Positions 19,456 through 31,734 of a stretch of 42,718 bases of DNA are shown here, piece after piece. The notes beneath the pieces are model-generated. The model searched no databases and was not told the origin of the DNA. It was given only the letters and a program-made list of their open reading frames with translations. The first letter of the stretch is position 1. Each line of letters opens with the position of its first letter. The position numbers and the translations under genes were made by a program. Source of the DNA: a virus (Duplodnaviria > Caudoviricetes); the IMG/VR virus record IMGVR_UViG_3300049982_000230, positions 1-42,718 of that record; one strand, 5' to 3'.

Positions 19456-20250
19456 ATGCGACTCCGTCACCATCTCGCTGAGCTCGACGCCTACCGCAAG
19501 GACGCGCTTGGCTTCCGTGACTTCGCCCGCGTCCTTCGAGTGCGGCTGAGCCAGAGCAAGCTCGGGCCGCTCGTCTGCCCGAACCCGATCACCGTCGCCG
19601 TGCGCCTGCGGAGCTTCGGCCCCGAGCCGCTCTGGCTGCGCAGCCACAAGAGCGACATCTCGGTACTCAACGAGCAGTTGCTCTCCCACATCTACGACGC
19701 CGTGCTCCCGCACACGGACGGCGCCCGCACGATCGTCGACCTTGGCGCCAACACCGGCATCGTCGCCAGGTGGCTACTGGCCCGACACCCCAAGGCCAGG
19801 ATCGTGTGCGTCGAACCCGCCGCTGAGAACGTCGCGCTCCTGGAGTGGAACCTCGCCGAGCATGGCCATCGTTCCGCGATCGTCGCCCGCTGTGTCGGCG
19901 GCAGCCGCCGGCCCGTGATGGTCGGCACGACGAACGGCGCGTGGGCGTACGCGATGACCGACGCCGACGGAGCGGAGGCGAACTCGTCGGTCGTGACGAT
20001 GGACGACGTCATCGTTGAGCACGGCCTCGACAAGATCGACCTGCTCAAGTGCGACACCGAGGGCGCCGAGTGGGAGACGTTCGAGCGCTGCGATGGATGG
20101 ATCGATCGTGTCCACGCGATGGTGGTCGAGCTGCACGGCGGCCGGCTGCCGCGGATGCTGGAGTCCATCGGCACCGGCTGGAACGTGTTGACCACCGACC
20201 ACGACCCGCGCCGTAAGCAGGAGACGGTCACGCTGGCCCGGGCGGCGTAG
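19456..20250 (+). CDS. FkbM-family SAM-dependent methyltransferase (moron)
   Basis: IVDLGANTG, CVEP..EN, IDLLKCDTEGAEWE, MVVELH; antisense to the structural operon. Confidence 0.9.
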   Translation: MRLRHHLAELDAYRKDALGFRDFARVLRVRLSQSKLGPLVCPNPITVAVRLRSFGPEPLWLRSHKSDISVLNEQLLSHIYDAVLPHTDGARTIVDLGANTGIVARWLLARHPKARIVCVEPAAENVALLEWNLAEHGHRSAIVARCVGGSRRPVMVGTTNGAWAYAMTDADGAEANSSVVTMDDVIVEHGLDKIDLLKCDTEGAEWETFERCDGWIDRVHAMVVELHGGRLPRMLESIGTGWNVLTTDHDPRRKQETVTLARAA

Positions 20251-20253
20251 GCC

Positions 20254-20943
20254 CTAGGCCGGGAACCAGGCGCCGGCGACGCGGACTTTGACCGGCTTCT
20301 CGACCCACGCTCCGGCGATCCTGGCGAGAATTGTGGAGGTGGCCCCGCCCGCTGCGACGTTGCCGGCGTAGAAGTCACCGACGGCCGAGAGGGAACCGGT
20401 GTCGTAGCCCGCGAGCACCGGGAAGAACGGACCGGCGAACGACGTATCGGTAACGGTGTGAGCGAGCGTCTCAACCCCGCCGCGGTCGCGGTAGATGCGC
20501 ATCACGCCGGTGTCAGCGGTGCGCCGGAAGATGATGAGGTCGGTCGGGACGACGTCAATGCTGCCGGTCGCGCCCGCGGCGTCGATGCCATCGGTGTACT
20601 TCGAGTAGGCGATCGTCTCATTGCCAGCGGCGTTCTGCACGACGGCGAAGACGTAGCCGTCGGCGGTGCCGGCGCCCGGCTGCTGGACCAGCCCGAGACC
20701 CTGGGTCAGGCCGTCGCCTGACGGCATCACAGCGACGGTGAACGCCACCTCGATGTCCTGCTCGCCATCGAGGCTCAGCGTGTCGAGATAGGCGGCCCGG
20801 TAGAACTCGAACAGGGCAGTGTTGTTGAAGATGCTCGGCGTACCGCCTGCTCCATCTCCGAACGGGTCGGCCGTCCAGCCCACGCCCAGGTTGTTGGAGA
20901 CCGCCCGGTTGAAGTTGTCTCGCAGCGGAACGGTGACGGGCAT
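20254..20943 (-). CDS. Fibre/receptor-binding-type beta-sandwich protein
   Basis: DNFNRA..LGVGW start; C-terminal ARIAGAW..KVRVAGAW motif seen in phage fibre accessory proteins. Confidence 0.65.
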   Translation of the reverse strand: MPVTVPLRDNFNRAVSNNLGVGWTADPFGDGAGGTPSIFNNTALFEFYRAAYLDTLSLDGEQDIEVAFTVAVMPSGDGLTQGLGLVQQPGAGTADGYVFAVVQNAAGNETIAYSKYTDGIDAAGATGSIDVVPTDLIIFRRTADTGVMRIYRDRGGVETLAHTVTDTSFAGPFFPVLAGYDTGSLSAVGDFYAGNVAAGGATSTILARIAGAWVEKPVKVRVAGAWFPA

Positions 20944-20948
20944 CGGTT

Positions 20949-22232
20949 CTACCTCTCGTAGGCGCCGGCGTCGGGCGAGCCATCGCGCGCCTTGCCGGTC
21001 AGGTCGGTGGCCGTCGCCAGCGAGCCCAGTGCCTTCCCGATCGCGAACGAGCCCGACGCGAGGGTGAAGTCGCCGCCGGCCGCGTTGGTGAACATCGGCG
21101 CCCATGTGGTGGACGTGTCGCCGTCGCCGGCGTGCACGCAGCCCGACCCCGTGAAGATGTTGTTCTTCCACTGGTTGGCCGCCCGGAGCCCGTAGAGCTG
21201 GTTCAGCGCGGTGCAGGTCGAGCCCGAGTTGACGATGTTGTTGGCGAACGTCACCTGCGACGGCGGCGCCGGGCTCGTCTCGGTGTTGACGAAGCCGTCG
21301 AGCGTGTTGTTGACCATCTGGACGACGCTGTCGATGTAGACGGCCGCCGCGACCCCGCCGACGTTGGCGATCACCGTGTTCTCGAGCCGGTCGTTGCTGC
21401 CTGCGCCGTAGCCGCCGGAGATGAACCAGCCCTGGAACCCGGTCGGCGGCGAGCTGCCGGTGCACGAGCCACCCGACCACGTGGAGTTCTTGACCGTGAG
21501 GTTGGACCCCGCCATCTTCTGCAGGAAGTCCTGGTGGTCGCCGCTGTTCGTCGGGCACGAGAAGTTGAACATGTCGACGTTGTCGAGCGTGATCCCGTTG
21601 CACGCCGCCCCGCCGTTGACCGCGCCCTTCGTCCAGATCTGGACGCCGTCGCCGCGGAAGATGTTCGTCATCGTCACGTCCTTGATCAGGACGTTGCCGC
21701 ACTCGCCGGTGAAGATGACGTTGCCGATCACCGTGGGCGAGTTGTCGTGCATCGTGGCGCCCTGCAGCGTGAAGTTCGTGACCGTCGTGCTGTAGCCGAT
21801 CGTGACGTAGTTGTCGTTGCCGTCGAGCTTCTGGGTGGGGCTGACGTTGATGCCCTGCCCGCCCGCGCCCGTGGTCCCGTCGACCGTGATGCCGTCGACG
21901 CCGGAGAAGCTCCATCCGTTGGTGATGTTGACCTGTGCGCCCGGCGCCAGCCGGTAGGTGACGCGCGCACCGCCCTTGGCCGTGAGGCCGCTCAGCGACG
22001 CCTGCGAGCTCGTGTAGGTCCCTGCGGCCACCGAGATCGTGTCGCCCGGCGCGGCCGCGGTATAGGCGCTGGCCCACGACGCGCACGGCGCCGCCTGCGT
22101 GCAGGCCGTGCCTGAGCCGGTCGGGCTGACGAACCGGTTGGCGGTGGGCCCGCTGCCGACGATGCCGCCGGCGATCGCGGTCGCGATCAGCGCGCTGACG
22201 GCGACCCATGCGCCCGTGCGTCGGTACCTCAC
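20949..22232 (-). CDS. Pectin-lyase-fold (right-handed beta-helix) protein with N-terminal signal peptide/TM
   Basis: FVSPTGS..CTQAAPC..PGDTISVAAGTY; Asn/Gly/Thr-rich repeats; DLTGKARDGSPDAGAYE end. Confidence 0.8.
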   Translation of the reverse strand: MRYRRTGAWVAVSALIATAIAGGIVGSGPTANRFVSPTGSGTACTQAAPCASWASAYTAAAPGDTISVAAGTYTSSQASLSGLTAKGGARVTYRLAPGAQVNITNGWSFSGVDGITVDGTTGAGGQGINVSPTQKLDGNDNYVTIGYSTTVTNFTLQGATMHDNSPTVIGNVIFTGECGNVLIKDVTMTNIFRGDGVQIWTKGAVNGGAACNGITLDNVDMFNFSCPTNSGDHQDFLQKMAGSNLTVKNSTWSGGSCTGSSPPTGFQGWFISGGYGAGSNDRLENTVIANVGGVAAAVYIDSVVQMVNNTLDGFVNTETSPAPPSQVTFANNIVNSGSTCTALNQLYGLRAANQWKNNIFTGSGCVHAGDGDTSTTWAPMFTNAAGGDFTLASGSFAIGKALGSLATATDLTGKARDGSPDAGAYER

Positions 22233-22927
22233 GACACGGGCACCCAGAGGTCACGGCCGTCGAGCGCCGCGATGCCGGGATCGGCGGGACCGAGGAAGAT
22301 CGCGGTCCGCGCGCCCGCGTCGCGGGCCCGGTAGGCCGAGCCCGTCCACTCCACGACCTGGATCAAGTACTGCGTGTCCACGATCCCGTGGACGCTCGTC
22401 GTGTCGGCCTCGTGCGTCGTGATCGCCGACGTGATCTCGGCGTCGGTCGCCGCGGTCGCCGCGTCCTGCTTCGCCGCGAGCGCCGCCGCCAGGCCCGTGA
22501 TGTCGGTCTGCGCGTGCGTGTGCGTCGCGGCGGCCTTCGTCGCCAGCCCGGGCACGGTCGGTGCGGCGGCCGTGCCGCCGAGGTCGCCGGCGAGCTGCAC
22601 GACGCCCTTCGTGTCAGCGTCGGCGTCCGGTGCACTCCCGCCCCCGCTTCCCACCAAACTCAGCCAGTGTGCTGAGAGGTCGCCGGCGAACGTCGCGCCC
22701 GCCGTGTGGTCGTTCGTGGCGGCGTACGTCTGGCCACCGCTGGTGACCATGTCGTTGGTTTTGTACGCCGTCCCGGTGACCCAAGCGCCGCGGTAGATGC
22801 CGCTGCTGACGCCGGACGGGCCCGGCGCGCCGGACGGGCCCGGCGCGCCGGACGGCCCGGCGGGCCCCTCGTAGAACTCGACTGCGGCGGACGGCCGGGG
22901 CGGCGCGTCGGGATTGAACTTGGTCAT
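22229..22927 (-). CDS. Fibre protein with short collagen-like repeat and CBM-like module
   Basis: GPSGAP repeats; YRGAWVTGTAYKTNDMV; KGVVQLAGDLGGTAAAPTVPGL; HTHAQTDITGL. Confidence 0.75.
   Translation of the reverse strand: MTKFNPDAPPRPSAAVEFYEGPAGPSGAPGPSGAPGPSGVSSGIYRGAWVTGTAYKTNDMVTSGGQTYAATNDHTAGATFAGDLSAHWLSLVGSGGGSAPDADADTKGVVQLAGDLGGTAAAPTVPGLATKAAATHTHAQTDITGLAAALAAKQDAATAATDAEITSAITTHEADTTSVHGIVDTQYLIQVVEWTGSAYRARDAGARTAIFLGPADPGIAALDGRDLWVPVS
22811..22860. repeat. 18-bp tandem repeat encoding collagen-like GPSGAP
   Basis: GCCGGACGGGCCCGGCGC x2 plus a partial copy. Confidence 0.8.
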
Positions 22928-25243: not shown

Positions 25244-26380
25244 CTAGCTGGCCGGGGACTGCAGGACGGCGGCCGGGTAGCGCAGCTCCTCGACGACCTG
25301 GTCGTAGTTGATGGTGTTCGCGACCTGCCAGCCGACGCGCATCACCATGCGCATGGCGACCATGTCCTGCTGGGCGAGGTTGAACACGATCTCGCCCGTC
25401 GCCGGGTCCTGGATCACGGCCTCGGTCAGCAGCTTCCAGGTGACGTCCTTGCGCAGCCCGAACACGAACTCGGTCGGGTCGAACGCGACGAGCTCGGCGC
25501 TCGAGACCGCGGTCGGCCACTGGCCGCGCATCGGGAACCGGATGTCGAGGCTGTCGATCTCGACGAGGTCCTTGGTGATCTTGATCTCGCCGTAGCGGTC
25601 GCCGGTGTCGTTGCGCGCGGCGCGGGCCAGGCCCTTGATCGTCTTGCGCGCGACGGCCTGCTCGGCGTCGTAGCCGTCGGTCTCCATCGCGCTCATCACC
25701 GCGCCGATGTCGCCGACGATGCCGCCCTGCTTGACCGTGGCGGTGCCGCGCGTGACGACGTTGCCCGCTGCGATGGCGCCGGCGACGACGTTGGTCGGGA
25801 ACGACGACGGGGCGCTCGTGCCGAAGAACACCGTCGAGTCGATGAGCCGGCCGCCGGCCTGCTCGCAGAGCGGGCGGACCTCGTCCCAGATCGGGAAGCC
25901 GGCGTCGTCGATGACGGCCTCCGGGATCGGCACGATGACCGCGAGCTCCTCGATGTCGATGAACTTGTTCTTCCACGCGGCCTTGCTGGTCTGCTTCATG
26001 CCGGTGTCGCCGGTGACCCAGTAGGCGATCGGCAGCGCGGAGAGGACGGGCAGGCGCACCTGGGCGCTGCCGACGGGCACGCGGGTGAACTGGCTCATCA
26101 CCGCGCTGTCGTTGACGAGGTTCTTCCGGAACGCCTGCGACACCTCTTCGGGCATCGTGGCCTCGGCGTCGCCGCGGTTGATGAGCGCGTTGAGGGGCAC
26201 GCCGCTGGCCTGCAGCGCGGCGAGCCGGGTCGGCCACGCGGCCTCGAGCTGGCGCGCGAGGTCGGTCAGGCCGTACGGGATGGTGATGCGGGGGGTGCGG
26301 TCACGCACGGTGGCGTGGATCGCGGAGACGCCCGCGACGGCCAGGAGGCCGACGATGAGGGCGACGAGGACGGTGGGCAC
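25244..26380 (-). CDS. Major capsid protein (HK97 fold) with 60-aa N-terminal extension
   Basis: MPEEVS, LPIAYWV.G, EELAVIVPIPE, NLAQQDMVAMR..RVGWQ; strong GGAGGAG SD at GTG 26380 (alternative GTG 26200 lacks an SD). Confidence 0.9.
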   Translation of the reverse strand: MPTVLVALIVGLLAVAGVSAIHATVRDRTPRITIPYGLTDLARQLEAAWPTRLAALQASGVPLNALINRGDAEATMPEEVSQAFRKNLVNDSAVMSQFTRVPVGSAQVRLPVLSALPIAYWVTGDTGMKQTSKAAWKNKFIDIEELAVIVPIPEAVIDDAGFPIWDEVRPLCEQAGGRLIDSTVFFGTSAPSSFPTNVVAGAIAAGNVVTRGTATVKQGGIVGDIGAVMSAMETDGYDAEQAVARKTIKGLARAARNDTGDRYGEIKITKDLVEIDSLDIRFPMRGQWPTAVSSAELVAFDPTEFVFGLRKDVTWKLLTEAVIQDPATGEIVFNLAQQDMVAMRMVMRVGWQVANTINYDQVVEELRYPAAVLQSPAS

Positions 26381-26443
26381 GGTGGCTCCTCCTGGTCGTT
26401 TCGATGAGGTGAGGCCGCCCACCGGGGGCGTCCTGTGCTGCTG

Positions 26444-27139
26444 TCAGCGCCGGCCTGCGGCGCGACGGATGGCGGCGTCCATGTCGCTGGAGCTGCCGCC
26501 GCCGAGGCCCTGGGGGCCGCGGGGCACGTGGGGACCGCGGGGGCGCTCGCCGCCCGCGGCGAAGACGTCGTCGCCGTAGACCTTGGCCGCGGCCTTCAGG
26601 GCCGCTTCGAGGTTGGTCGGCTCGTCGTCGTCGTCGAACTCGACGGTGTCGAGCAGCTTGGCCGCGGCCTTCGCGCGGCCGCCGGTCAGGCCGTGATCGG
26701 CGAGGCCGAGGATGACGTTGGCGGTGCGGAGCTTCTGTGTCCCCGTCTCGCCGCGCTTGGTGCCTTCCTCGGCGTCCTTCTTGAGCTTGTCGGCCTCGCT
26801 GAGGCCCTGCTCCTCGAGCTTCTTGAGCTTGGCCTCGGTGTCGCGGAGCTTCTTGCGCGTCGCGGCGTTCTCGCCGCGCAGACCCTTGACGTAGTCGGCG
26901 TCGAACTTGCCGTCCTTGGGATCGCCGCTCGCGCCGGCACCCTCGCCGCCGCCTTCGCCGCCTTCGTCGCCCGAGCCCGCGCCGCCTTCGCCGCCGGCCC
27001 CTTCGCCGCCCGCCTCGCCCTCGCAGAGCGGGACGCCGCTCAGGTGCAGGGCCGCGTCGATCGCGGGCCAGGACGGACGCATAAGCTCGGCGAGCTCCAG
27101 CGCGTCGGGATGGATCGTGTTGCTGTCCACCAGGGACAT
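26444..27139 (-). CDS. Capsid scaffolding protein
   Basis: Gly/Glu linker, FDADYVKGLRGENAATR, coiled coil, DMDAAIRRAAGR end. Confidence 0.85.
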   Translation of the reverse strand: MSLVDSNTIHPDALELAELMRPSWPAIDAALHLSGVPLCEGEAGGEGAGGEGGAGSGDEGGEGGGEGAGASGDPKDGKFDADYVKGLRGENAATRKKLRDTEAKLKKLEEQGLSEADKLKKDAEEGTKRGETGTQKLRTANVILGLADHGLTGGRAKAAAKLLDTVEFDDDDEPTNLEAALKAAAKVYGDDVFAAGGERPRGPHVPRGPQGLGGGSSSDMDAAIRRAAGRR

Positions 27140-27199: not shown

Positions 27200-28066
27200 T
27201 CAGGCGGCCTGCGCCTGAAGGGCGACCAGCGGCGTCTCGGCGAGCGCCACGTTGGTCTGGCCGAGACGCTCCGTCGCGATCTGCGCCAGGTCGGCGAAGT
27301 CGATGCGGCCGTCTCGGATGAGCTGCGCCTTGGCCGCGCCGCCGCGGCCGTGGAAGGTCGCGTCCTGCTCGGCGGGGGTCTTGGCGGCGAAGATCTCGTG
27401 CCCGCGGGGGCGTCCCCAGTCCTGGTCGTTGACGTGCAGGACCACGGGCTCGGCGATGCAGCGGTCGCGGGTGTGGACGACCATGTCCTCCTCGGCGGGA
27501 TGCACCGATCCGTCCATGAGCGCCAGGCAGGCGCCGCAGGCGCCCGGCTCGGCGACGCGGCGCCAGCCGAGCACATCGGGGAGCTGCGCCATCCGCGCCC
27601 GGGCAGCGTCGCGCCAGGCACCGACGGCGGCGTCGTGAGCGACGCGCGCGGCCTCGACCGCGAGGGCCTGGCGCCGGAAGGCCTCGACGCGGTCGTTGCT
27701 GAGCGCGATGCCGTGGCGGCGGGCGAAGGCTCGGGCCGCGACCCGGCTGCGGCCCTCGGACTCGGCGAGCCGGCTCGCGATCGGCACGACGAACTCGTCG
27801 CGCGTCAACGGCGCCGGCGCGGGGATCCGTGGCGGCCCGGTGGGCGCCAGCGCGACGATCGCATCGACGTACGCCGTGGCGGCGCGCGTGGCCAGGTTCG
27901 CGGCACCGGAGCGCCACAGCGCCGAGGCGACCCACCACCGAGGCTCGAGGCCGCCGTCGCTGCGGGCGACCTTGACGCCGGTCCGGATCGCGGCGACGGC
28001 CTGGCGCTCCAGCTCGACGTGCGCCTCGTCGGTGACGCTACGCGCCCGCTGCGGCTGCGGCTGCAT
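27200..28066 (-). CDS. MuF-like minor head protein (start uncertain)
   Basis: WRRVAEPGACGAC...HTRDRC motif; follows portal. Confidence 0.75.
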   Translation of the reverse strand: MQPQPQRARSVTDEAHVELERQAVAAIRTGVKVARSDGGLEPRWWVASALWRSGAANLATRAATAYVDAIVALAPTGPPRIPAPAPLTRDEFVVPIASRLAESEGRSRVAARAFARRHGIALSNDRVEAFRRQALAVEAARVAHDAAVGAWRDAARARMAQLPDVLGWRRVAEPGACGACLALMDGSVHPAEEDMVVHTRDRCIAEPVVLHVNDQDWGRPRGHEIFAAKTPAEQDATFHGRGGAAKAQLIRDGRIDFADLAQIATERLGQTNVALAETPLVALQAQAA

Positions 28067-29585
28067 CTGGCGGCGGCGGTTCGGGCGGCAGGCCGCTGGC
28101 ACCGGAGATGCCCAGGCGCAGGCCGTCGAGCTGCGCCTCCTCCTGCGCCCAGCGCCGCCAGCGCTTGATGGTCTGCGGCGACCGGCCGTCCAGCTCCCAG
28201 AGCGCCCGCTGGGGCACGCCGATCGTCTTGAGCTTGACCAGCGCGTCGACGCGCTGGGCCTCGGAGGTGGTCTCCGGGTCGGCCCACATCGTCTCGGCGC
28301 CCCATGCCTCGGCGCGCTTGATGTCGCCCTTGATGAGGAACGCGATCCGCAGCGCCTCTTCCCACGTCTCGCCGGCGAACCGCATGGCGCGGCGCGTGCG
28401 GGCGACGAGGCCGTCCTGGGACGCGATCAGGGCGTCGGCCGAGACGTTGATGAGCTTCGCGAGCAGGTAGTGCGGCGGGGTGCGCGTCAGCGCGGCGAAG
28501 TGCTGGGTCAGCAGCTCGATGCCGTTGACGTAGGACGACAGGTCGGAGGTCTGCAGCTCCTGGATCGACGGCGTGACCTGCTTGCCTTCGTCGTCGACTG
28601 CGGCCTCCAGGCCGATCCACCGGTTGACGCCGCCGATGATGCTCTTGTCGGGCTGGCCGTCGGCGCCGACGGGGATCTCGACGCCGATGAGCACGCGCTG
28701 GCGGTAGGAGGTGAACTCCGAGGCGACCAGCATGTCGGCCATCAGCTTGTTGATGGCGTCGTTCAGCGGGACGCCGGCCTCGAAGGCGCTGGTCCCTCGC
28801 CCGTAGATGTCGGGGTCGTTGAGGAACTCCAGGATCGGCACGAGGCCGAGCTGGTTCGGGGTGGCGGCGGTCACGGCCCAGCGTTGCGGGCTCGTGCCCT
28901 TGCCGCCGGCCATCTCCCAGACCATCTCGGGGGTGAACAGCAGCGCCTGCCAGCTCCCGTCGAGCTCGCGCCAGCGCTTGAACCCGGCGACCCGCTTCCG
29001 GCGGTTGGCCGGGTCGTGCAGCACGATCGTCTGGAGCGGGTCCTCGACGGTGATCGTCGGCTCGCCGGTGTCCTCGTCGGGCCAGACCAGCGTGTAGCTG
29101 TAGCCCGTGGAGAGCATCTCGGTGTGCGCGAGGTCGGAGTCCAGGTCGAGCCGGTTGCGCTGCCAGATCTCCCACGCGGCCTCGTCGGCATCGGCGGTCT
29201 CGACGTCGGCCGCCGCGGCGTCGGGCGTCGCGGGATCCGCCGCCGGGTCGAGCTTCGGGGCCCCCAGCACGTCGTCGGCCATCCCGAACCGGAAGCCATG
29301 GATCGCCATGCGCTCGATCGCGGCGTCGACCACGATGCGACACCAGTTGTCGACGACCATGCCGAAGTCGCGACCAAACGTCTCGCGCCACTTCTTGGTG
29401 GCGAACGACATCGGGTGCTTGCCGTCGCGGTAGTTGCGCAGCGCGATGATCAGCGGCGCGCGGTCGTCCAGGGCCTTGGTCAGCCGGCCTGCCAGTTCGA
29501 GCGCGCGTGCCTCGGCGGCCTCATCCGGCGGGGGGTCGAAGACGATGGGGGCGTCGTCGACCGCGGGTTTTGCGAGCAGGGTCAT
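28038..29585 (-). CDS. Portal protein (SPP1 gp6-like)
   Basis: NWCRIVVDA..ERM, IWQRNRLD, TPPHYL..NVSADAL, WADPET. Confidence 0.9.
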   Translation of the reverse strand: MTLLAKPAVDDAPIVFDPPPDEAAEARALELAGRLTKALDDRAPLIIALRNYRDGKHPMSFATKKWRETFGRDFGMVVDNWCRIVVDAAIERMAIHGFRFGMADDVLGAPKLDPAADPATPDAAAADVETADADEAAWEIWQRNRLDLDSDLAHTEMLSTGYSYTLVWPDEDTGEPTITVEDPLQTIVLHDPANRRKRVAGFKRWRELDGSWQALLFTPEMVWEMAGGKGTSPQRWAVTAATPNQLGLVPILEFLNDPDIYGRGTSAFEAGVPLNDAINKLMADMLVASEFTSYRQRVLIGVEIPVGADGQPDKSIIGGVNRWIGLEAAVDDEGKQVTPSIQELQTSDLSSYVNGIELLTQHFAALTRTPPHYLLAKLINVSADALIASQDGLVARTRRAMRFAGETWEEALRIAFLIKGDIKRAEAWGAETMWADPETTSEAQRVDALVKLKTIGVPQRALWELDGRSPQTIKRWRRWAQEEAQLDGLRLGISGASGLPPEPPPPDAAAAAAGA

Positions 29586-29596
29586 GGGCGGACTCC

Positions 29597-31276
29597 TCAG
29601 TCGAGCGCGACCATGCGGCCGGCGCGGCGCTTATGTCGCCGCCGCGCGCGCTCCCACAGGCCCTCGGTGTGTGCATCGACGGCGGCCTGGTGCGCGAGGG
29701 TCGCGGCCGGGGCGGCGTCGATCTTGCGAGGCGAGCCCTTGCGGTCCTTGGTCAGGACGTAGAGCTCGCGGTTGCCGGCGCGCATCGCGTGCACGGCGGT
29801 GACGCCCGTGACGTACTTCTTCTGGGCGTTGCGGAAGTGGTCGCGCATCAGGTCGCCGAAGTCCCCTGACGCCTGCGCGCGGGCGCGGCCGGTCTGGATC
29901 GAGCCGGTGAACCCGCCGACCGCGTCGGCCATGCGCCGCTCGCCCTGGGTCGGGAAGCGCTTCCAGATCCCCGGCCAGCGACCGGCCCACTGGCCGAGCT
30001 CGGTCTCCCAGTAGGGCGGGTCGCCGAGCGCGCGGACGATGATGAACTCCTCGTGCGCGGCCTCGACCGCCTCGTGGACCTCGTCCTCGGGGACCTCCCA
30101 GGACTGCGAGCCGTCGTGCTGCCAGATCTTCAGCGGGATGATCCGGAAGTCCTCGGTGCAGCCGATCAGCGCGGTCGCGTCGAACTCGCGCGAGCCGTCG
30201 AAGCCCAGCGCCATCGGCTCGCCCGGGGTCGTGGTGACGCCGGGGTCGAAGAGGGCGGCCAGCTCGCCGCCGGTCAGCCACGCGTTGGCGCCCGATGTCG
30301 ACTGGTTGAGCCAGTAGCGCCGGAAGTCCGATTCGCTGGCGGTGGGGTCCTGCGCGTCGCTGGCGATCAGTTCGAGGTCCATGACCTCGGCGAAGGGGCC
30401 GTAGACCTCGCGCAGCGCCGGGATGACCTCGTCGGCGTTGCGGATGTCCTTGACCGGCGGCGCCTCGCGGTGGTTGTAGAGCAGGCCGGCCTTGGCCTGG
30501 GCCTCCGGGGTCTTCAGCGTCGCGGCGTACTCCGCGGCGCGCTCGGCGATCGAGTCCATGCCGGGCCGGAAGGCCGTCGTGGTCTCCAGCATCCACGGCT
30601 CGGCGTCCTTGAGCTTGCGCAGGTTGCGCGAGACGACCGCGTGCATGTCGCGGAGCTCTTCGATCTCGGCGAGGTGGGTCTCGTCGTCGACCGCGAAGGT
30701 CTCCTTGCCGCCGTCCTTCGAGGCGCCCGAAGCGGTCGATGGCCGGATCTCACCGCCGCCCGGCAGGAAGATGCGTGTCCGGCCGATGTCGTCGCCGGAG
30801 AACCCGTACGCATCGACGACGTCGTCGCCGGCGAGCATCACCCGGACGTTGTCGTAGGTGTTGCCCGCCTGGGTCGCCTCGGTCGCCAGGCACCGGATGA
30901 ACGGCGACGCCAGCGGCGCGCCGACGGGCTCGCCGGGCTCGTACTCGTAGCCCCACCACGACGTCTCGCCCTCTTCGGCCCAGTGGTCGAACCGGCAATC
31001 GCCGATCGCCTCGAAACAGACGATCTCGCCCGCGATCTCGGACTTCGACCGACCCTTCGGCCGGCTCAGGATGGCGCGCCGGTACACGCGCCGCCCGGCC
31101 CGCGCATGCCCCTTCGGGAAGAGGCGGTAGCAGTCGCAGATGAACCCGACGATCTCGTCGTCGAGGACGATCTCCTCGCCGATGACCGTGCCGGGGCCGT
31201 GTCGGAGGAACTTCTCGATCCAGGCGACCGCGGCCCACCCCAGCGTGGGGTAGTCCCCGAGCGCCGGGAGGGTCAC
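29597..31276 (-). CDS. terL: Terminase large subunit
   Basis: Walker A SRPKGRSKS, Walker B FAVDDETH, nuclease LGFDGS..DATA, KIDAA. Confidence 0.92.
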   Translation of the reverse strand: MTLPALGDYPTLGWAAVAWIEKFLRHGPGTVIGEEIVLDDEIVGFICDCYRLFPKGHARAGRRVYRRAILSRPKGRSKSEIAGEIVCFEAIGDCRFDHWAEEGETSWWGYEYEPGEPVGAPLASPFIRCLATEATQAGNTYDNVRVMLAGDDVVDAYGFSGDDIGRTRIFLPGGGEIRPSTASGASKDGGKETFAVDDETHLAEIEELRDMHAVVSRNLRKLKDAEPWMLETTTAFRPGMDSIAERAAEYAATLKTPEAQAKAGLLYNHREAPPVKDIRNADEVIPALREVYGPFAEVMDLELIASDAQDPTASESDFRRYWLNQSTSGANAWLTGGELAALFDPGVTTTPGEPMALGFDGSREFDATALIGCTEDFRIIPLKIWQHDGSQSWEVPEDEVHEAVEAAHEEFIIVRALGDPPYWETELGQWAGRWPGIWKRFPTQGERRMADAVGGFTGSIQTGRARAQASGDFGDLMRDHFRNAQKKYVTGVTAVHAMRAGNRELYVLTKDRKGSPRKIDAAPAATLAHQAAVDAHTEGLWERARRRHKRRAGRMVALD

Positions 31277-31734
31277 GTCGCAGCTTTGATCCGAGCGCGC
31301 CGCTCACGCTGCTTGGCCATGTCGATCGGCTCGTCGTCGCCGGCGGGCTTGCCGTCGGCCTCGACCGCGGACTGCACCTGGACCTGCAACCGCTGCCGCG
31401 CGAGCGGGCTCGCGCCGAAGTTGTTCTCCAACTGGCGCAACTCGCCCTGCGCCTGGGCGCCGAGCTTGCCGAGCATCGCGAGCGAGTGCAGCGAGCAGAG
31501 CCGCGCGATCGGGTGGCGGTCCGAGTCGGTGTACAACACGCCGTAGTCGGTCCACAACGCGGTCCAATACTCGGTCGCGAGCTGGCGGCGGCGCTTGGTG
31601 AGCGTCGTCTCACCCGGCATAGGCGGGATCGGGACTACGCCCCGGGTGATCGTGCGCCACTGGCGCTGGCCGAGGTTGCGCCGCTGACGCGACGACGTGC
31701 CGTCCGCCTTGGGCGGCGCGGGCGTGGGAGCCAT
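31273..31734 (-). CDS. terS: Terminase small subunit
   Basis: PAPPK..RQRRN, YWTALW, ELRQLE..FGASPLARQRL; GTGA-coupled to terL. Confidence 0.85.
   Translation of the reverse strand: MAPTPAPPKADGTSSRQRRNLGQRQWRTITRGVVPIPPMPGETTLTKRRRQLATEYWTALWTDYGVLYTDSDRHPIARLCSLHSLAMLGKLGAQAQGELRQLENNFGASPLARQRLQVQVQSAVEADGKPAGDDEPIDMAKQRERRARIKAAT

Follow-up and report, generated by a model that had tools for sequence, protein, structure and literature searches.

A portable N-terminal leader on the scaffolding and capsid proteins of phages with probable Solirubrobacterales hosts

The scaffolding protein and the major capsid protein (MCP) of the soil phage described here carry near their N termini a common leader of about 32 residues, which is helical, has the consensus IPxGLLxLAxxLExxWPxxLAxLxASGVPLN and ends in SGVPL[N/C]. 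This leader is a portable N-terminal tag, patchily spread over unrelated proteins, and in capsids it stands exactly in place of the initiator Met. In the best explanation, to which we give about an even chance, phages place the leader on the scaffold, the capsid protein and a few other proteins, and its helix would serve as the docking site for a factor, most likely a protease, of the probable Solirubrobacterales host. We infer that this host enzyme would recognise a helix followed by an extended stretch and would cut past ...SGVPL[N/C], and that in the present phage a predicted anchor would keep the capsid subunits attached to the inner side of the membrane for as long as they are uncut. The cut is perhaps incidental in the forms without an anchor, as in the staphylococcal phage 80alpha, and would be needed in the anchored forms.

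The leader in the head module of the phage

The window, which is the whole stretch of DNA analysed and the entire record IMGVR_UViG_3300049982_000230 (42,718 bases), encodes an integrase, replication genes and a contractile tail, and the phage is temperate. The head module lies on the minus strand, in the order terminase small and large subunits (29597..31734; PF25673, phrog_9), SPP1-type portal (28038..29585; PF05133, phrog_104), a MuF-like minor head protein of 300 residues with the pattern C-x2-C ... H-x2-D-x-C (27200..28102; phrog_1522, E 3.5e-5), scaffold and MCP. The scaffold gene (26444..27139; 231 residues) starts at ATG 27139 with a Shine-Dalgarno duplex energy of -10.5 and matches phrog_4708, 233 and 194, as well as PF06810 with an E value of 8.6e-7 that falls short of the curated cut-off of that family. 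The MCP gene (25244..26380; 378 residues, starting at GTG 26380) matches PF05065 (E 1e-14) and phrog_10; its profile matches 8ECI (E 4.5e-137) and the 80alpha capsid 6B0X (E 3.8e-16), and 8ECI is also the top Foldseek match. Both sequence and fold place the MCP among the HK97-fold proteins, and by its sequence it is of the Bridgette/Muddy/80alpha type. The Pfam domains begin at residue 74 of the MCP and at residue 84 of the scaffold. Many window genes have no family assignment. An FkbM-type methyltransferase gene (19456-20250, plus strand) lies on the opposite strand amid the virion genes, and the stretch from tail terminator to tail sheath (20254-22927, minus strand) holds fibre-like and carbohydrate-binding genes (CBM_5_12, DUF5123), including one for a 427-residue protein with a hydrophobic, signal-like N-terminal stretch.

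When scaffold residues 8-38 are aligned with MCP residues 33-63, 14 of 31 positions are identical without any gap (BLOSUM62 score 58). Shuffling the N-terminal stretch 5000 times never reaches this score, and shuffling the entire scaffold 5000 times reaches it in 26 cases. The common motif reported by the first-pass annotation is in agreement with these values, and its 31-residue core is retained; its end is moved by one residue, to C39 of the scaffold and N64 of the MCP. The scaffold leader thus comprises residues 8-39 (TIHPDA...SGVPLC; 27023..27118, minus strand), with a predicted cut at C39|E40, and the capsid leader residues 33-64 (TIPYG...SGVPLN; 26189..26284, minus strand), with a predicted cut at N64|A65. 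The scaffold and capsid leaders of the window resemble each other (0.42) no more than they resemble the leaders of other phages (mean 0.456). In two other loci (L023 and L035) the scaffold and capsid leaders of the same phage are each other's best match, which fits within-phage copying or a phage-specific partner.

The capsid leader is preceded by the Shine-Dalgarno sequence GGAGGAG (26386..26392, minus strand), 5 nucleotides ahead of GTG 26380. Its duplex energy with a short anti-Shine-Dalgarno sequence is -10.0, compared with -3.7 for GTG 26422 and -2.5 for GTG 26200, and the strong site noted at first pass is therefore real. The coding pattern also extends above 26200, since the third codon position is G or C in 9-10 of 10 codons per block over MCP residues 7-66. 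The Val whose codon would be the alternative start is encoded by GTG in just 9 of the 30 leaders with DNA; the Ser codons of the leader are TCN in some and AGC in others, and third codon positions are the least conserved, in a set of 30 loci mostly collected with a DNA pattern in which certain codons were preset. The rare GTG, the switch of Ser codons and the variable third positions indicate that the leader is selected as protein. Five other capsid genes (L152, L153, L156, L213 and Bridgette gp6, L229:3968) have, where the start is expected, no ATG, GTG or TTG with a Shine-Dalgarno sequence, and the reading there is ...VIPIPY[N/D]; it is possible that these use a non-canonical start, or that the annotated start is 12 residues too early.

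Spread and register of the leader

Among the best 120 of 4286 capsid homologues, 91 are leaderless, 18 carry the leader alone and 11 carry a hydrophobic helix followed by the leader. A quick tree of the capsid bodies needs 13 gains or losses of the leader, of which at least five are forced by well-supported branches. The leader is also present on 11 of 29 scaffold homologues, the rest being without a leader or having short ones of other kinds. Searched with a profile, 1.84 billion proteins give 66 matches, with the motif in 63 and ending within the first 65 residues in 61; most of the carriers are scaffolds or capsids, as judged from Pfam, PHROGs and by eye, many have no family, and no recognisable host housekeeping protein is found among them. 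The leader-bearing capsids span phrog_10, 1650, 212 and 371 and include delta-fused forms, which the leader precedes in L021, P0180 and P0195. The motif is therefore conserved across many phages, and the condition under which the first-pass annotation would have abandoned its proposal, absence of the motif from related phages, does not hold. Five further carriers (P0196, P0202, P0204, P0207 and P0209) are family-less proteins, neither scaffold nor capsid, and in four of them a Met directly follows the leader, as if it had been fused onto the old start. In P0184 a capsid-type start is joined to a BTAD domain, which may be a misassembly.

Leader-bearing loci were found with DNA patterns, the first of which was real in 23 of 30 matches and the looser ones in 1 of 39 and 3 of 27, mostly chance. 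Counted without the duplicates L016, L017, L033, L036, L059, L067, L129 and L133, and with the scaffold of L065 judged by eye, there are 28 distinct loci, of which 5 have the leader on both proteins, 14 only on the scaffold and 9 only on the capsid. Release of the capsid together with the scaffold, as it had been proposed for this phage, is not a general rule. Seven scaffold homologues (P0127, P0128, P0130, P0133, P0136, P0139 and P0140) and the loci L001:5349-5903, L002, L022:7903-8733 and L034:5932-6774 have further leader types in the same slot; the types seen in this group are PRLAG, PVIAG, PPIAGG, LLF|DGEG and MFAPD. The scaffold leader of L001, L022 and L034 is of a different type from that of the capsid of the same phage. 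The leader types of the scaffold slot suggest a family of interchangeable, host-matched tags. Runs of genes that by eye look like glycosyltransferases lie directly past the capsid gene in L009, L019, L022, L028 and L034.

The main argument for a removable piece comes from the register. It can be measured in 27 of the 29 leader-bearing capsids, and in 25 of them 5 residues separate the leader end from the conserved I-x-R, the same number as between the Met and I-x-R in 79 of 91 leaderless capsids; the exceptions are the window capsid and P0011, with 2 residues. The end of the leader is thus the start of the leaderless relatives, in agreement with the first-pass observation that the protein body begins right after the motif, and the predicted cut would generate an A-Y-D-N start, which the leaderless forms obtain by removal of Met. 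The same register is preserved in a second capsid family, as seen when comparing N|AVTL of L023 with M|AYTL of L025. Prp-type leaders (LQLF, LQKF, IRFF, TQFF) occupy the same slot in L195, L211, L215, L216, L217 and L222, which are more distant loci of the capsid family of the window. Because the register matches and Prp-type leaders fill this slot, the leader is best understood as a removable piece, as in 80alpha.

In the 95 unique leaders the conserved positions line one face of the helix, and S-G-V-P-L-[N/C] comes next. The hydrophobic stripe on this face and the near-invariant L, W, L, G and P are accompanied by variable junction residues; the frequencies of W, G and P are inflated by the anchoring pattern, and 6 non-fitting matches are excluded from this set. 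At the junction, P1 is N in 67%, C in 20% and otherwise A, M or L (12%), and P1' is A, E, D or another residue.

The membrane-type helix, the host and the candidate enzymes

The MCP begins with a hydrophobic helix (residues 1-23, followed by basic residues; 26312..26380, minus strand), a predicted N-out/C-in anchor. The mean Kyte-Doolittle value of residues 4-21 is 2.8, and the AlphaFold2 model has helices at residues 2-26 and 38-58 with linkers to the body that are of low confidence. The membrane-type helix recognised at first pass recurs in 11 capsid homologues, i.e. in 11 of the 29 leader-bearing capsids (two pairs being near-identical), and requires 7 changes on the capsid tree. The basic residues that flank a membrane helix indicate its cytoplasmic side (the positive-inside rule). 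In all 11 capsids there are 0-1 basic residues before the hydrophobic segment and 2-5 after it, as in an N-out/C-in anchor, and this suggests that the helix is a single-pass anchor with the leader and the capsid body in the cytoplasm; alternatively, it is possible that the helix is a signal peptide. In 5 other carriers the pre-leader is basic, and in 4 of these it has a high hydrophobic moment (strongly amphipathic), which is a weaker hint of membrane association. Membrane tethering, as proposed at first pass, is not the core of the system, since a transmembrane-type helix is absent in 18 of 29 leader-bearing capsids and in all scaffolds seen.

The only named genome that carries the leader is a Solirubrobacteraceae MAG (order Solirubrobacterales). 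In 401 genomes of this order, real matches occur in 5, each on phage head genes, and 11 further, weak matches are partial and mostly off-frame; the class and phylum samples (401 genomes each, overlapping with the order sample) add one weak match, L254 in the phylum sample. The probable host is thus a member of the Solirubrobacterales, an assignment that comes from one 2.7 kb MAG contig and four genomes of its order. No host protein with the leader is found by profile in the 401 + 401 + 401 overlapping genome samples (19 to 150 candidates scored per genome). A looser search in 5 genomes gives weak matches only, a DNA pattern for the leader has a single, off-frame match in 5 genomes, and a search of the ESM Atlas (best score 0.85) gives no lead.

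Several enzymes were considered. Prp, which was discovered via L27, is rejected: it is found in none of 5 host-order genomes (PF04327; controls positive in 3 of 14), and L27 begins MAHKK in all 5, without an N-terminal extension. No strict JAMM motif is present in the coding-like frames of the window or of 22 loci, and Prok-JAB has no match in 64 window ORFs and one per genome in 5 of 5 host-order genomes. L020 (5682-6080) and L030 (10056-10451) encode, between the portal and the MuF-like gene, a small HExxH protein that belongs to no PHROG family; it is rejected as the phage protease because only these 2 loci have it in common. Sortase sites carry LPXTG or LAXTG, and prepilin-peptidase sites are followed by a hydrophobic helix; both readings are rejected, the position being wrong and no hydrophobic helix following the site. 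Beyond common phage genes, no non-structural gene is common to the leader-bearing loci within the fetched flanks. In the first-pass annotation the head module was said to contain no protease gene; scans with Pfam and PHROGs find no peptidase family in 13 + 51 window ORFs, as claimed, but PHROGs labels the 300-residue gene 'head maturation protease' (phrog_1522, E 3.5e-5). This gene is nevertheless MuF-like: a profile of 16 of its relatives matches Bridgette gp4, a 'MuF-like minor capsid protein' (E 3e-24). Its single-sequence fold, at a pLDDT of 43, is uninformative. As a protease matched to the leader it is rejected, because it is present in 43 of 100 loci without the leader and shows no correlation. 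L004 has both leaders and yet no gene between portal and scaffold. Absence of a prohead protease had also been taken as evidence, an argument that does not survive: L008 and L021 have the leader and their own head protease, and Bridgette has neither the leader nor an annotated protease, so that the leader is no stand-in for a prohead protease. The proposed search with a profile of the motif has found other carriers among phages, and neither a host carrier nor a co-occurring peptidase.

The most economical explanation is a host factor; the cellular genomes with a real match all belong to the Solirubrobacterales. Speaking against a host protease, no host substrate is found, the scaffolds of L001, L022 and L034 bear another leader type, cleavage is dispensable in 80alpha (PMC5744158), the variable junction is loose for a protease site, and the conserved amphipathic helix of 30 residues could simply be a binding surface. 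This last point leads to the alternative that survives best, a serious possibility that we nevertheless consider rather unlikely: the leader would be an assembly tag, uncleaved or incidentally cleaved, whose amphipathic helix attaches to a host chaperone, to the membrane surface or to further copies of the leader and so co-locates scaffold and capsid. Conservation of the stripe and of the near-invariant residues next to a variable junction agrees with such a tag, as do the membrane-type pre-leaders of 16 carriers, the scaffold-only state being the commonest (14 of 28 loci), and the findings on 80alpha, where uncleavable mutants are viable, the scaffold leader is essential and a common chaperone is suggested (PMC5744158). 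However, the conservation ends sharply at one residue, which is the start of the leaderless relatives, and an uncleaved transmembrane helix on every subunit would be hard to reconcile with a free virion.

It is improbable that the leader is cut by a phage protease that escapes recognition by sequence, be it MuF-like or encoded outside the head module. The phrog_1522 label, the MuF-like gene in 15 leader-bearing loci, the own-phage best matches of L023 and L035, the small HExxH gene of L020 and L030 and the many window genes without a family would be compatible with it. MuF-like genes are, however, also present in 43 of the 100 loci without the leader and are absent between portal and scaffold in L004, L007, L015, L023, L025 and L111, and neither a strict JAMM motif (window and 22 loci) nor another common gene in the fetched flanks is found. 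Self-cleavage of the junction without an enzyme, by Asn cyclisation or a Cys-based acyl shift, is highly improbable: Asn or Cys is last in 87% of the 95 leaders and neither protease nor host substrate is found, but Ala, Met or Leu takes this position in 12%, there is no folded autoprocessing domain around the site, and the next residue is unconstrained. Equally remote is a capsid made from GTG 26200, with the upstream frame an untranslated relic or chance likeness. A start there would give a capsid of normal length (M-P-L-N-A-L-I-N-R), as in the leaderless homologues, a second start is possible, and past the leader the window capsid lacks 3 residues of the usual length, but the Shine-Dalgarno energies, the codon usage of the leaders, the third-position pattern and the hydrophobic helix kept in 11 homologues all argue against it.

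Comparison with known systems and meaning

The host-protease reading has its closest precedent in 80alpha, where, according to two reports, the leaders of the capsid protein gp47 and the scaffold gp46 are cut at F|A by the host protease Prp (PMC9405229, PMC5744158), the motif of L27 for Prp being MLxx(D/N)LQ(F/L)F|A (PMC9405229). In the second of these, uncleavable mutants are described as viable and the scaffold leader alone as essential, and its authors suggest a common chaperone (PMC5744158). The present system resembles that of 80alpha in that a leader is common to scaffold and capsid and ends at the mature start, in the same slot of the same capsid family (6B0X); both also lack a phage prohead protease, have the leader on non-homologous virion proteins of other phages and have a capsid leader that is evolutionarily dispensable. 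The differences are in the leader itself, which is of unrelated sequence, about 32 residues long and helical, compared with 13-14 residues in 80alpha, and does not contain the L27 motif, as the first-pass annotation had stated; in the 5 of 5 host-order genomes (the host being inferred) without Prp or an extended L27 and in the host substrate, of which none is found; and in the optional transmembrane-type helix and a cleavage that is here only predicted.

The Arthrobacter phage Bridgette (8ECI; MH834603) has the same order of portal, MuF-like, scaffold and capsid genes, no annotated protease and a capsid that is 49% identical to the window MCP over residues 61-373, but its scaffold and capsid are without the leader, and the leader profile has no match in the 100 loci of Bridgette type that form the set without a leader. 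In the HK97 type a long coiled-coil delta domain is fused to the capsid protein, with a U35/S49 protease gene upstream, and this domain is removed by the phage prohead protease; T4 assembles its procapsid on the membrane. Removal of an N-terminal piece in head maturation, as proposed here, and membrane-associated head assembly therefore have precedents. Unlike in HK97, there is a separate scaffold gene, a 64-residue extension and no peptidase family, so that the extension is not a delta domain, and the leader is no scaffold domain either, since it also precedes delta-fused capsids; unlike in T4, it is the major capsid protein that bears the predicted anchor. The actinobacterial phages Patience and Adjutor have capsids that are reported as modelled without the first 19 and 27 residues (PMC11965321), and are comparable in that an N-terminal extension is missing from the model. 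The short Gly-ending actinobacterial leaders (PVIAG, PRLAG, AIAGG) occur on homologues of the window scaffold, and in L022 and L034 they accompany a capsid with SGVPLN; they have another motif (PL[N/C] here), this phage has no JAMM gene, and the present leader is not one of them. No description of an SGVPL[N/C] leader was found in the open literature searched. The leader would work like that of 80alpha, but with a different motif and without Prp, and is apparently undescribed.

In its most far-reaching form, which we put forward tentatively, the proposal is that the Solirubrobacterales have an undescribed, probably membrane-associated protease directed by the leader, and that some HK97-fold capsid proteins are integral membrane precursors, whose heads would nucleate on the membrane and whose subunits would be freed by the host cut. 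What 80alpha gains from its leader is in question, because the cut is dispensable and the scaffold leader essential. The cut should be essential in the anchored forms, and the question of what such leaders are for thereby becomes testable. With an unrelated leader occupying the slot of the 80alpha leader in another phylum, it seems that phages have repeatedly adopted host-matched tags for their head proteins. The leader may serve as bait for a processing enzyme or chaperone in the Thermoleophilia, a little-studied soil lineage, and as a marker by which uncultured phages could be assigned to such hosts.
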